Assembly: GCA_038314665.1 (NCBI GenBank) | Contig: GCA_038314665.1_3677.1 | Length of the DNA stretch: 64,000 bases | Source of the DNA: a phage | Reading direction: 5' to 3' (one strand) | In this document: piece by piece, positions 9,253 to 63,571 of the stretch | Numbering within the stretch: the first letter of the stretch is position 1 | Layout of the letters: each line of letters starts with the position of its first letter | The notes under the pieces: model-generated | What the model saw: the letters and a program-made list of their open reading frames with translations, nothing else | What the model was told of the DNA's origin: nothing | The model's database searches: none | Program-made: the position numbers and the translations under genes

Positions 9253-9843
9253 ATGTTTTTATGGGAAAGGCCTAGATACCTTCCAGATATTAGATTGGAG
9301 CTGCTGGCAGATATTGTTACGTTTAAAAGTCCGTTTACAGGTAAAACGCAAAAAGTAACCTATGCCACACCTAACTGGAAAGGCACTTTGACGGTTTCCA
9401 ATATCAGCGAGTCACAGTTGCTAGAGCTTAAGAGCTTTGTTGATCAGGTGTATAAAGATGGGAACATATTTCTCATTAAAACTTACGGTCACTCAGTAAC
9501 AGCTAATGAGCCAATCGCCCTTGGGCCTACTGGTAACGACGATTTTTTGAAGACGGTTGGGTGGGAGCCAAACAGAGACATAGCTAGAGCTGGGGATAAA
9601 ATATCTGTCAATGATGAATTGAAAGTGGTAACAGCTCCAGTACGCAGCGATGGTGTTGGGTCTGCTGTTATAAGCATATCTCCAAGACTTAGAAAACCTA
9701 TTGCCGCAGGGGATACTATGAAGATAATAACTCAATCCCCAAAGGGTAGGTTTCATATCAGAGATATTTATAAAATTAAGCAAAAAGTCGATGCTATGCA
9801 AAAAGGTGATAATATAGTTATCAACTTCTTTGAGGATTTCTAA
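9253..9843 (+). CDS. tail/baseplate assembly protein (minor tail protein), tentative
   Basis: 196-aa ORF with RBS GGAGG, first gene after terminator, heads operon ending in the 1199-aa fibre. Confidence 0.35.
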   Translation: MFLWERPRYLPDIRLELLADIVTFKSPFTGKTQKVTYATPNWKGTLTVSNISESQLLELKSFVDQVYKDGNIFLIKTYGHSVTANEPIALGPTGNDDFLKTVGWEPNRDIARAGDKISVNDELKVVTAPVRSDGVGSAVISISPRLRKPIAAGDTMKIITQSPKGRFHIRDIYKIKQKVDAMQKGDNIVINFFEDF

Positions 9844-57948: not shown

Positions 57949-58527
57949 ATGAAATGCAAACGTTGTGGGGAGGACAAGGAGGCCTCCGACTTCTACACCA
58001 GCAACAAATCAACGTGCAAAGAGTGCTGTAAGAAGGCCAGCAGGGAGGCTGACCAATTTGCTAAAGACTCTTCAGAAAAAGGTGTAATACGTGTGTTGTA
58101 CAAAACTCAAAAGTGCAACAGCAAGCAAAGAGGTCACCCTCCTCCGACTTACACCAAAAAAGAGTTTAAAGAGTGGCTATACCTAAACGGTTACAAAGAG
58201 TTGTATGACCAATGGGTAGCCAGCGGATACGACAAAAGGAAAAAGCCTTCTTGTGACAGGATAGACGATTTCAAAGGATACTCTTTTGATAATATCCGTT
58301 TAACAACTTGGGGAGAAAATAAAGACAAGCAGACAGAGGATATTCTGTTACATAGAAGCACCAGCGGTAGACGGTGCAAAAATGTAAGGAGATTGGACAT
58401 GAATGGCAACGTTCTTAAAGAATGGGTATCCCACAACTCTTGCAGCAGAGAAACCGGAATATATGTTGGTTACTACATTCATGAAAAAATTCCAGCCCCC
58501 GATGGATACCTCTATGAATACTTTTAG
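57949..58527 (+). CDS. Cys-rich zinc-finger protein, possible nuclease
   Basis: 192 aa; N-terminal CKRC..CKECC zinc-finger-like cysteines; no definitive HNH or GIY-YIG motif seen. Confidence 0.3.
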   Translation: MKCKRCGEDKEASDFYTSNKSTCKECCKKASREADQFAKDSSEKGVIRVLYKTQKCNSKQRGHPPPTYTKKEFKEWLYLNGYKELYDQWVASGYDKRKKPSCDRIDDFKGYSFDNIRLTTWGENKDKQTEDILLHRSTSGRRCKNVRRLDMNGNVLKEWVSHNSCSRETGIYVGYYIHEKIPAPDGYLYEYF

Positions 58528-61551: not shown

Positions 61552-61738
61552 GCTTAAATCTGCATGGAACATTGCTGTGGGGGATGAGATCCGCATTCCT
61601 GGTGGGAAGACCGTTATGAAGATATCTCGTGTTGAATACGAAGGTGACCGTGTATTCCACATCTTTGCAGAAGATGGTCGAGAAATTTATATACAGGCAG
61701 GCTCACACATCTATATTCGTAAAGGGGATGACAAATGA
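61538..61738 (+). CDS. hypothetical early protein
   Basis: 66-aa ORF overlapping neighbours. Confidence 0.35.
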   Translation: MSMFKLKSAWNIAVGDEIRIPGGKTVMKISRVEYEGDRVFHIFAEDGREIYIQAGSHIYIRKGDDK

Positions 61739-62064
61739 CAGAGATCATCATTTCAACTGCAGGGTATGTATTCCTGACAATCATTGCGCTGATCATCTTG
61801 GTGGTGGTGTATGGATTTGTTATCCTGCCTATTCTTGAGACATTTAGTTTATGTCGGTGTTGGAGAAAGGCTTACGGACCACAGCCGTGGAGAGACTGGC
61901 CCCACCTGTTACGCATAGCGTTCTCTTATGCCTATGATCACGCCAGCAGTGCATGCATAACCGGGTATCACGCCCACAACTGGAGCTGGGAAGGGTTGAG
62001 GAAATGGAATGTTACAAAGACCATACCTCTGCGCATGTACAAACCTAAAAACAAAGACAGCTGA
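61735..62064 (+). CDS. small membrane protein
   Basis: 109 aa; hydrophobic helix AGYVFLTIIALIILVVVYGFVILPIL. Confidence 0.4.
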   Translation: MTEIIISTAGYVFLTIIALIILVVVYGFVILPILETFSLCRCWRKAYGPQPWRDWPHLLRIAFSYAYDHASSACITGYHAHNWSWEGLRKWNVTKTIPLRMYKPKNKDS

Positions 62065-62094
62065 TACTTGAAAATTCCTGGCATATCAAGTGTA

Positions 62095-62123
62095 AGGAGG
62101 ATTTCTAAAATGGATTTCCTCCT
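62095..62123. repeat. perfect inverted repeat / hairpin
   Basis: aggagga - 15 nt - tcctcct. Confidence 0.4.
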
Positions 62124-62377
62124 TTTGATATTTCACCGGGCTGGATATTTTAAAATCCTTAGAAAATCAGAAAATGGATCGAAAACTAAAATGGATTTTT
62201 TCAGAGTGGGCGCGACAAGCTGAATCACCCATCCTATCGTTTGCACCATATTCCAGACCACCATTACAGATTTCCTGCACATACTCACATCCTTCTACTA
62301 TAACTCCCTCCACTTACCCTTGACCTTCTATGGTAACAATCTAACCACTATCTTGAAGTTGCGGTGCAGCTTTCCAG

Positions 62378-62466
62378 GTACTCGATCTGTTTTTCATTTC
62401 AAAGATTGAATTTTCTGAAAATTTTTCTCGATAAATTTCTCAGTACTCGATCTGTTTTTCGTTTTC
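62378..62466. repeat. direct repeats in AT-rich non-coding region
   Basis: gtactcgatctgtttttc at 62378-62395 and 62443-62460, with a second repeated unit (g)attttctg(a/g)aaat between and after them. Confidence 0.5.
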
Positions 62467-62667
62467 TGAATCGGATTTTCTGGAAATCGTTCCGGCTCTC
62501 GACCTGAAATTTTTGGGGACGAAATCGATTTTTCGTTTTCAGAAATGGATTTTTAAAATTTCTATATGGGAATATTTTAGTGGATACTGTTTTATAGGAA
62601 ATTGTTACGGATGGTAATTAGCATGCTAATTAAATTTATTAAATGCGAGGAGTTCTCATTTAGAATT

Positions 62668-62686
62668 TTGAATGATAATCATTCTC
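62668..62686. promoter_or_regulatory. Fur-box-like operator, copy 1
   Basis: TTGAATGATAATCATTCTC matches the 19-bp Fur consensus GATAATGATAATCATTATC at 15 of 19 positions (hand count). Confidence 0.45.
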
Positions 62687-62803
62687 GTTTGCAGAATAAC
62701 GGGCAGGCCCGGTGATTGTCTCCCGGCCCCCACTGCCCCGGCTTGCTATTATAGTAACACACAGGACAAAGAAAGCAAGAAGTTTTTGCATAAATTTTTA
62801 GAC

Positions 62804-62822
62804 GATAATGATAATCGTTCTC
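62804..62822. promoter_or_regulatory. Fur-box-like operator, copy 2
   Basis: GATAATGATAATCGTTCTC matches the Fur consensus at 17 of 19 positions (hand count). Confidence 0.5.
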
Positions 62823-63080
62823 ATTTCATGCAGCGCCCATCCCCGGTGGTTGTCTCCCCCGTCACCGGTGCCTGCCGTCCTTTCGATAGGTATATTGTGC
62901 CACCTGGCGGGGCCGCTGTCAACACTTTTCAAAAAATTTTTCTAACCTGATGCGCTAACCGCTGCAACCTGGCGGGGCCAGCCTGGCAGTACCTAACTGA
63001 CCAGGTAGGAGAGATGAAGGCTTGTAAACCTGGTGGGCCTATGCTATAGGATAGGTAACAATTGAAGAGGAGGTACAAAA

Positions 63081-63260: not shown

Positions 63261-63289
63261 TTGACAGCTCGGATAGTTCTTGTTATTCT
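63261..63289 (+). promoter_or_regulatory. weak sigma70-like promoter
   Basis: TTGACA - 17 nt - TATTCT. Confidence 0.3.
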
Positions 63290-63542: not shown

Positions 63543-63571
63543 TTGACATATAGTCTGACACAAAATATACT
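63543..63571 (+). promoter_or_regulatory. sigma70-like promoter
   Basis: TTGACA - 17 nt - TATACT right after stop of 63342..63539. Confidence 0.5.

Follow-up and report, generated by a model that had tools for sequence, protein, structure and literature searches.

What is the function of the AT-rich, repeat-rich DNA at positions 62095–62580 of a 64,000-nucleotide stretch of phage DNA (contig GCA_038314665.1_3677.1, referred to here as the window)? The window belongs to a Vequintavirus, an rV5-like myophage with a genome of ~136 kb, and an earlier note had proposed an origin of replication, a packaging site, or a multi-operator region at this locus. We found that the flagged segment forms the left half of a non-coding stretch of ~1 kb (62065–63080), and we are confident that this region is a subfamily-wide, non-coding, cis-acting element and not a genome terminus. 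Most plausibly, it serves as a replication origin or as a DNA-entry or transcription checkpoint. Our favored reading, to which we assign a probability of roughly one in three (0.35), is that the core of the region is the phage replication origin, acting in cis and kept free of incoming transcription. We rank this first, a hub for transcription only second, and a boundary like that of phage T5 third. The origin is placed first because the essential core falls on the DNA that melts most easily, beside repeats of fixed span, at the end of the transcription unit that carries the replication genes. We infer all of the functions discussed here, including termination, protein binding, unwinding, and origin function.

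The interval 61700–63100 matches 122 phage records at 84–100% identity, nearly all of them Escherichia Vequintavirus. Over 62065–62660, the window is 100% identical to phage LL12 (MH491969, 117,317–117,912, minus strand), and the LL12 coordinate is 179,977 minus the window position. Genome-wide repeat counts were made on the window joined to the remainder of the LL12 genome. Conservation and open reading frames (ORFs) were checked in an alignment of 16–18 homologous regions with 84–100% identity.

The clearest view of which parts of the locus are needed comes from the HIDEN-SEQ preprint (10.1101/2025.11.20.689424, Extended Data Table 8), in which Himar1 insertions were mapped in the sister phage Bas54. 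Bas54 is phage MaxBurger (MZ501093) and is 98.3% identical to the window over 62371–62660. This evidence consists of counts per annotated feature, which in the non-coding stretch cover 62361–62507, 62513–62617, and 62672–62945. The features, in window coordinates, are as follows.

61735–62065: bas54_0099, the upstream gene, with insertions at 18 of 21 TA sites, non-essential.
62361–62507: bas54_0100, 1 of 3 TA sites, not classified in the preprint.
62513–62617: bas54_0101, annotated as a hypothetical protein, 0 of 11 TA sites, scored essential.
62672–62945: bas54_0102, 5 of 15 TA sites, strong fitness defect.
From 63081: bas54_0103 to bas54_0109, the downstream genes, 86–100% of TA sites, with bas54_0103 intermediate and bas54_0104 to bas54_0109 non-essential.

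Mean read counts from bas54_0099 to bas54_0103 are 220, 5, 0, 13, and 152, and the preprint authors singled out only the 2-kb terminal-repeat region as insertion-free (10.1101/2025.11.20.689424). The transposon carries a marker driven by its own promoter, BBa_J23110, which reads outward with no terminator. An artefact of a promoterless marker was considered as the source of the insertion-free status and rejected, since the transposon carries BBa_J23110. The bas54_0101 feature more likely marks a non-coding essential segment, either a DNA or an RNA element, than a gene. We read the requirement as non-coding because several relatives, Bas50 among them, lack an intact bas54_0101 ORF.

The insertion-free segment 62513–62617 overlaps the stability minimum of the window. 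Three features at or beside this core carry the argument for an origin.

62545–62644, no strand: AT-rich segment, 77% A+T, a candidate DNA-unwinding element.
62368–62553, plus strand: three direct-repeat units, starting at 62368, 62433, and 62507.
62615–62632, no strand: perfect 18-bp palindrome TAATTAGCATGCTAATTA, found by self-reverse BLAST, just right of the flagged range.

By nearest-neighbor free energy, 62545–62644 is the least stable 100-bp duplex of the 64-kb window, and the first-ranked segments are 62536–62685 at 150 bp and 62395–62644 at 250 bp. Compared with the rest of the LL12 genome, the AT-rich segment ranks second at 100–150 bp, as only the DNA at LL12 ~65.0 kb is less stable. 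The TAATTAGCATGCTAATTA palindrome is not strictly conserved, and its center or one arm is altered in about half of the relatives.

The direct-repeat units are 47–57 nt long, are spaced by 65 and 74 nt, and share 72–75% identity (self-BLAST E = 1.7e-5). Units A and B are each headed by GTACTCGATCTGTTTTTC (62378 and 62443), which is the duplicated 18-bp unit reported earlier. This 18-mer occurs exactly twice, and no further copy with up to 3 mismatches was found in the 64 kb (0.06 expected). The plus strand of 62368–62553 is T-rich (42% T), with eight TTTTC against 3.3 expected, a count reached by 3 of 500 shuffles. A CTCGATC box followed by a T-run is invariant between genera. The spacing of the boxes is 65+74 bp in the window, 78+63 bp in phages CR8 and CB7, and 74+67 bp in KPP-1, and the total is always 139–141 bp. 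The units do not have the form of iterons (at least three direct repeats of ~17–22 bp with regular spacing), and the short motifs are spaced irregularly. No DnaA boxes (TTWTNCACA) were found in the locus; by eye, there is a near-match (7/9) at 62579–62587. Three matches to the oriC-type 13-mer pattern cluster at 62384–62539 because of the repeats, and across the whole window the pattern has 35 matches against 31 expected, which is chance level. Predicted curvature at 62369–62489 falls in the top ~0.7% of the window and ranks 11th among its curved segments, which is weak evidence, as it was computed with our own wedge-model code. The sequence TCGATAAATT at 62428–62437, which we take to be a high-affinity H-NS motif, is present as a single copy genome-wide.

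The smaller repeats are also peculiar to this locus. In the 64-kb window, AAAATGGAT has three copies, all on the plus strand within 90 bp (62107, 62171, and 62188). The copy number is ordinary (1.1 expected by chance), and the clustering is the unusual feature. A copy of AAATGGATT lies at 62543. Outside the window, the LL12 genome has one additional AAAATGGAT, on the opposite strand, and no further copy of GTACTCGATCTG, AAATGGATT, or TCGATAAATT was found. The repeats are found nowhere else in the genome and are therefore locus-specific and non-random. All of the other repeat units and aaaatggat motifs listed in the earlier note are present, as is its 7-bp inverted repeat (AGGAGGA at 62095–62101 and TCCTCCT at 62117–62123, with a 15-nt loop).

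We asked whether the region could encode small proteins after all, as several records annotate ORFs here (rV5 ORF199, LL12 gp189, bas54_0100, and bas54_0101), bas54_0101 was scored essential, and the ATG at 62110 is preceded, at a distance of 8 nt, by a perfect Shine-Dalgarno sequence (AAGGAGG). However, the annotated ORFs conflict in strand and position among records. The ORF starting at ATG 62110 varies from 7 to 84 codons across relatives, with frameshifted tails, and in 9 of 15 relatives stops interrupt the minus-strand ORF that is annotated in LL12. The bas54_0100 ORF (62361–62507) is broken in 3 relatives, and the bas54_0101 ORF (62513–62617) contains in-frame stops in 5 of 17 relatives, including Bas50, and has lost its start in one more. 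In total, every candidate ORF has stops, frameshifts, or lost starts in 3–9 of 15–17 relatives. Furthermore, the Shine-Dalgarno-like sequence forms one arm of hairpin 1, whose stem covaries (described below). We therefore regard small proteins at this locus as effectively excluded, judging from the ORFs of the relatives. The description of ~0.5 kb without a convincing ORF was borne out, as candidate ORFs on both strands are stopped or frameshifted in relatives.

No other standard class of element was recognized. TRF detected no tandem array at the locus, ARAGORN detected no tRNA or tmRNA, and the best Rfam 15 match (E = 0.59) scored 22 bits, where the gathering score is 126. A CsrA-sponge RNA was also considered and dropped, as the excess of GGA motifs over dinucleotide shuffles is not significant (6 versus 4.1 in block 1 and 9 versus 6.3 in block 2).

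The region is better conserved than its surroundings. Mean pairwise identity is 82–83% in the flanking genes, 88–96% in the repeat units (62371–62580), and 96–97% in the right-half modules. Conservation of the layout extends beyond the genus. Homologues of the protein encoded two genes downstream, at ~39% identity, are present in the Certrevirus phages CR8 and CB7 and in the Stephanstirmvirinae phage KP13-16, and each of these phages has a ~1-kb non-coding region at the equivalent place. CR8, CB7, and the Mydovirus KPP-1 have the same order of elements: a T-rich block with four GATATTT, a spacer, and three direct repeats that begin (G)GTCTCGATC and continue with a T-run. These are followed by two to four palindromic operators, AATGAGAATNATTCTCATT, then by TTGAAT...GAATA..GGCA..GGTG.TTGTCTCC, GC-rich repeats, a sigma-70 promoter, and the first small gene. 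KP13-16 has a looser version, with the operators and long T-rich direct repeats containing GGATTTTAAAATCC. Using the CR8 left half as a database query, we matched Seunavirus, Mydovirus, and Septuagintavirus phages and no T5-like phage.

We also searched for the element outside of these phages. There were no matches in 5,426 E. coli genomes, and no other replicon carries the element, as the lone “plasmid” match is itself an rV5-like genome (PLSDB CP057073.1, a 137.6-kb E. coli record). A search of IMG/VR with the upstream protein as query gave just two close relatives, and a scan of IMG/VR for the pattern AAAATGGAT-N(4-30)-AAAATGGAT gave chance matches alone, none related to the locus.

A packaging (pac) site or physical genome terminus would fit the general look of repeat-rich non-coding DNA, and the ~0.5-kb size of the flagged segment is similar to that of the terminal repeats of relatives (459–514 bp). 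The termini are elsewhere, however. LL12 has a non-permuted 459-bp terminal repeat at 104,966–105,424, located with PhageTerm in non-coding DNA between convergent transcripts (PMC6658697). Taking the terminus position from LL12, which is identical to the window over 62065–62660, places the repeat at window position ~74.55–75.0 kb, ~12 kb downstream and beyond the window. It lies in a different non-coding region, and 62065–63080 shows no significant sequence similarity to the LL12 terminal-repeat region (103.9–106.5 kb). The terminal repeat of KPP-1, of 514 bp, likewise occupies the equivalent position, ~9 kb (~8.5–9.4 kb) from its homologous non-coding region. We consider a packaging role here close to negligible in probability, and this option of the earlier note is refuted by the position of the LL12 repeat. 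Of the two findings that the note had named as speaking against its inference, termini elsewhere were found, and repeats common across the genome were not.

The part of the region to the left of the direct repeats contains a second set of elements, which point to RNA. These elements, together with the hairpin inside the third repeat unit, are as follows.

62085–62129, plus strand: hairpin 1, identified by folding and covariation.
62107–62205, plus strand: motif block 1, with AAAATGGAT at 62107, 62171, and 62188, GATATTT at 62127 and 62144, and AAATCAGA at 62164.
62206–62370, plus strand: variable spacer, C-rich and G-poor, with its length kept.
62509–62553, plus strand: hairpin 2, a 16-bp stem (62509–62524 paired with 62531–62546) with four G·U pairs, then GGAUUUUU.

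Hairpin 1 is located at the end of the upstream operon, whose last gene has a stop codon ending at 62064. Its 8-bp inner stem pairs AAGGAGGA (62094–62101) with TCCTCCTT (62117–62124), and its outer stem pairs ATCAA with TTGAT (62085–62089 and 62125–62129). The first AAAATGGAT lies inside the 15-nt loop, and a U-rich tail, UUGAUAUUU, follows the stem. In the covariation set of 11 distinct sequences, 97.6% of cells of the inner helix are paired, compared with 53–69% in slid controls. Four of the eight inner pairs are changed on both sides, and the observed values were reached by 0–2 of 500 shuffles. Phage YP-6 alone has four compensatory pairs. Three sequences have G·U pairs, which are possible in plus-strand RNA only, and the loop keeps AATGGATT or AATGTATT in all sequences. 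We are therefore confident that hairpin 1 is an RNA hairpin that closes an operon and is the first element of the region. As an intrinsic terminator, it is only partly typical, with a covarying stem but a 15-nt loop and an interrupted, weak U-tract.

The core of motif block 1 (62148–62205) has 94.6% mean pairwise identity and 81% invariant columns, compared with 82.6% identity in the upstream gene. Between Vequintavirus and Certrevirus, TTTGATATT, GATATTT, and AAATCAGA are invariant, and four GATATTT occur at the matching place in CR8 and KPP-1. The spacer that follows is conserved in a different manner. Its mean identity is 71.5% (minimum 48.5%), yet it is 164–167 nt long in all 16 sequences. 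Its composition is 33% C and 14% G, with a C/G ratio of 1.9–2.7 in all 16 sequences. The plus-strand RNA has negligible predicted structure (minimum free energy –12.6 kcal/mol over 150 nt, centroid +0.8). The minus-strand ORF of the LL12 annotation is ruled out here because relatives carry 1–2-nt indels and stops. Rho-utilization (rut) sites comprise at least ~80 nt of C-rich and G-poor RNA without structure. The spacer fits this description, and its composition and predicted fold resemble those of a rut-like loading site.

Hairpin 2 has a predicted folding energy of –18 kcal/mol (z = –3.79), and none of 200 shuffles folds equally well. It was the sole site picked in a terminator scan (62509–62546 plus a U5 run), and on the minus strand only a short stem forms. 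In relatives, two one-sided changes keep the pairing and one breaks it. As a stable stem-loop followed by a U-run, hairpin 2 looks like a plus-strand intrinsic terminator. The remaining RNA folds were unconvincing; z scores for whole-block folds range from –0.05 to –2.2, and units A and B and the Certrevirus units fold no better than shuffles. RNA structure accounts for the two hairpins and not for the repeat units.

These elements resemble tandem intrinsic and Rho-dependent terminators, with a U-tailed hairpin after the last gene, a ~165-nt C-rich stretch, and a second hairpin with a U5 run. In contrast to such terminators, hairpin 1 has a weak U-tract and a 15-nt loop with an invariant motif. 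Additionally, the invariant motif blocks, the fixed spacing, and the insertion intolerance are unexplained by termination alone. It is possible, and in our judgment only a little less probable than an origin, that the whole region acts through transcription only, as an insulator between two temporal gene classes that is essential because mis-timed transcription is lethal. Such a hub would combine tandem terminators, AT-rich curved DNA, and protein sites serving the right-half promoters and possible small RNAs. The compensatory changes and G·U pairs of hairpin 1 argue for it, as does hairpin 2, the sole terminator-like site, whose predicted fold is much more stable than those of shuffles. The spacer keeps its length and composition and not its sequence, as expected of a Rho loading site, and the Bas54 insertion counts drop stepwise past each predicted terminator and recover past the first early-gene promoter. 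On the other hand, insertions in the flanking genes are tolerated, though the outward-reading promoter of the transposon perturbs transcription there too, and there is no known essential product downstream, as bas54_0103 to bas54_0109 are dispensable. No left-half promoter is conserved between genera, units A and B and the Certrevirus units lack RNA folds beyond those of shuffles, and the fixed 139–141-bp span of the CTCGATC boxes is unexplained. To the right, the promoter-like TTGAAT-18-CAGAAT with an operator in its spacer, described below, is kept in five genera, and strong sigma-70 promoters lie downstream at 63261 and 63543, all of which would suit a hub.

Reading the core as an origin combines these predicted terminators with the meltable DNA. 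The long operon upstream also carries replication genes, including those for the DNA polymerase and primase-helicase (rV5 and LL12 genome papers; PMC3606486), and the region separates this operon from a ~11-kb block of small, sigma-70-driven early genes beside one genome end. Transcripts of the upstream operon would be stopped in stages, at hairpin 1, over the Rho-loading-like spacer (62206–62370), and at hairpin 2 with its U-run (62509–62553). The CTCGATC-box units, with their fixed span of ~140 bp, and the GATATTT and AAAATGGAT motifs are candidate binding sites for one or more proteins, which may build a nucleoprotein complex. This complex would open the adjoining 62545–62644 segment, where a T7-type primase-helicase and Pol A could load. 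An operator-controlled promoter at 62666–62697 would supply or gate activating transcription.

Several observations weigh against an origin. The units are 65–74 bp and not 17–22-bp iterons, and DnaA boxes are missing from the locus. There is no adjacent initiator gene, Pfam and PHROG gave no informative assignment for the flanking proteins, and the resemblance to oriC-type 13-mers is at chance level across the window. The 2–2.5-kb non-coding terminal-repeat region is also insertion-free and could house the origin. It is possible that insertions in the core are lethal through forced outward transcription rather than through loss of the site. The G·U covariation of hairpin 1 and the G·U-rich hairpin 2 indicate RNA-level (transcriptional) roles for part of the region, and the right-half operator array recurs in the injection-stop region of T5, for which no origin role is known. 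On balance, the origin option of the earlier note is now more credible, as the DNA is non-coding, conserved above its neighbors and across genera, the least stable duplex, and insertion-intolerant in Bas54; what did not hold up is its iteron-like character, as there are neither classical iterons nor DnaA boxes.

Known origins offer partial parallels. The primary origin of phage T7 consists of promoters and an AT-rich segment, and T4 ori(uvsY) and ori(34) each consist of a promoter and a DNA-unwinding element; these T7 and T4 origins are individually dispensable. Like them, the region is intergenic, near early genes, and has meltable AT-rich DNA beside promoter and terminator signals. It differs in having host-RNA-polymerase signals, long direct repeats, and palindromic operators, and the region is not dispensable. 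The origins of phage λ and iteron plasmids are built from 17–22-bp units. The region shares with these one-strand direct repeats beside an AT-rich segment, an apparent requirement in cis, and predicted bent DNA. In contrast, its units are 65–74 bp and present in two or three copies, with no adjacent initiator gene and no DnaA boxes. The phage has a T7-like primase-helicase and Pol A replisome (PMC3606486).

The right half of the non-coding stretch, outside the flagged range, contains the operators. Its first element is listed here.

62666–62726, plus strand: promoter-like TTGAAT-18 nt-CAGAAT with a Fur-box-like operator.

The operator, TGATAATCATTCTCG (62673–62687), lies inside the spacer of the promoter-like site, and a conserved GC-rich, hairpin-forming segment follows. 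A second palindromic operator is located at 62804–62822 (palindrome 62809–62823), and the consensus of the right-half operators is TGA(G/T)AAT-N-(A/G)TTCTCA. Compared with the 19-bp Fur consensus, GATAATGATAATCATTATC, the match is 15/19 at 62668 and 17/19 at 62804. These are the only two sites with at least 14/19 in the window, and none lies inside 62095–62580. A multi-operator region, as proposed in the earlier note, thus fits the adjoining right half, with operators at 62668 and 62804, and not the flagged left half. The operators are kept in Certrevirus (four copies), in Mydovirus, and in a Stephanstirmvirinae phage, and TTGAATGATAATCATTCTC shows almost no variation in CB7, KP13-16, and KPP-1, with a 1-nt difference in CR8. 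This pattern suggests that the operators are bound by a conserved host protein such as Fur. We propose a conserved host binder because the operators are kept across genera whose proteins are just ~39% identical. In a Keio screen, fur was not among the host genes that LL12 requires.

The same operators link the right half to phage T5. In the T5 record (AY587007), direct repeat C (copies 1–4) and palindromes E–I are annotated at 9468–9640, beside the 7.9% nick, within the untranslated Repeat Region 3, the presumed location of the injection stop signal (iss). The T5 repeats read AAATGAGAATCATTATCATTTGCA and are nearly the same as the operators of CR8 and the window. When the CR8 operator segment was searched against a 2.3-Gb phage collection, it matched the left terminal repeat of BF23 (E = 1e-8), many T5-like phages at ~9.1–9.7 kb, and phi92-, phAPEC8-, and PVP-SE1-like phages. 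In a literature search, we found no paper linking Fur boxes to the T5 region.

These matches raise the question of whether the region marks a first-step-transfer boundary of the T5 type. In such a system, DNA would enter from the early-gene end, pause here, and the remainder would enter after early proteins are made; the repeats would serve as a cis-acting stop/restart site, the counterpart of the T5 iss. The position is suitable, as the region lies 11.4–12.5 kb (~9%) from the LL12 terminal repeat and ~8.5–9.4 kb from that of KPP-1, while the T5 stop is at 7.9%, and the small genes between the region and the terminal repeat are transcribed towards the end. In both cases, untranslated, repeat- and palindrome-rich DNA, presumed to act in cis and better conserved than neighboring ORFs, sits at the inner edge of the first-expressed small genes, 8–9% from a fixed end. 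The right-half operator array resembles T5 direct repeat C plus palindromes E–I, and the insertion intolerance in Bas54 fits a cis-essential site. High sensitivity to DNA intercalators is common to Vequintaviruses and T5-like phages, but T1-like phages are sensitive as well (PMC13250531).

Other points speak against this boundary. The Fur-box-like operator type shared with T5 adjoins in the right half only (62668 and 62804) and is not found in 62095–62580, and no T5 counterpart of the flagged left half (the CTCGATC units and the GATATTT and AAAATGGAT motifs) was detectable. T5 has paired DnaA boxes in inverted repeats C/D, unlike this locus. The T5 site is inside a long terminal repeat, which is 10 kb in T5 and 459 bp here, whereas the window region is not. 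Both genome ends carry outward-pointing small genes, and no two-step injection has been reported for rV5-like phages. The common motif may merely reflect the same host protein, Fur, and the Keio screen did not list fur among the genes required by LL12. We therefore consider it unlikely that the repeats are a T5-type stop/restart site, and equally improbable in its general form that rV5-like phages (Vequintavirinae and phi92-like relatives) deliver their genome in two steps with this region as the injection-stop/restart site. If they did, the operator array would be the part common with the T5 iss, with Fur or a common phage factor marking the boundary, and the CTCGATC units and AT-rich segment would be the subfamily-specific part of the device.

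Additional features were observed around the region. GC-rich, hairpin-forming segments follow the operators at 62700–62760 and 62835–62900, with KPP-1 counterparts at 124,950–125,130, and their conservation extends across subfamilies. They include CCGGTG(A/T)TTGTCTCC and a longer CTACCGGCGAT..CACCTTCC..GTTAGCCCCGCCTTTTCGCCGTGGGGTGGCG block common to CR8, KPP-1, and KP13-16. These segments had no Rfam match and may be undescribed small RNAs. Between 62898 and 63037, there are three copies of (A/C)ACCTGG(C/T)GGG(G)CC, 61–65 bp apart, one of which overlaps a minus-strand promoter-like TTGACA-17-CACAAT (62922–62894). A similar element, there on the plus strand, serves as the promoter for the first of the early genes in CR8. 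Near-consensus sigma-70 promoters precede successive small genes at 63261–63289 (TTGACA-17-TATTCT) and 63543–63571 (TTGACA-17-TATACT). Both are typical of an early block driven by the host polymerase and reaching to the terminal repeat. One early protein, LL12 gp181 (65 aa, encoded ~2.5 kb past the window end), matches PF08200, “Bacteriophage 1.1 protein” (E = 9.5e-11). T7 gene 1.1 adjoins the T7 primary origin.

Other non-coding DNA in these genomes has similar properties. The DNA at LL12 64.6–65.3 kb is another non-coding region, of 660 bp, with the least stable duplex genome-wide, and KPP-1 has more Fur-like boxes at 116,848–117,300, directly beside its terminal repeat. Each of the two may be a further cis-acting site.

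A few observations concern the records themselves. Two records labelled “Campylobacter phage” are likewise 100% identical to the window over 62065–62660, and 16 GenBank MG0656xx records with that name have 94–100% identity to E. coli Vequintaviruses at the locus. This degree of identity suggests that they are mislabelled or contaminating phages. A 192-amino-acid ORF at window 57949–58527, a putative homing endonuclease according to the annotation of phage WalterGehring, is apparently missing at the equivalent LL12 position, which suggests a mobile insertion.

To our knowledge, the terminal repeat is so far the only cis-acting site defined in rV5-like phages, which are widely used in therapy cocktails, and GC-skew analysis in the rV5 paper located no origin (PMC3606486). 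Here, we delimit a compact candidate at about 62370–62950, with its core at 62513–62617, which is non-coding, conserved in four or more genera, and in a sister phage could not be disrupted. The “essential gene of unknown function” bas54_0101 is recast as a probable DNA or RNA element. Additionally, a statistically supported sequence match ties the region to the injection-stop region of T5, a problem more than 50 years old. In practice, the region would be best left untouched in phage engineering.

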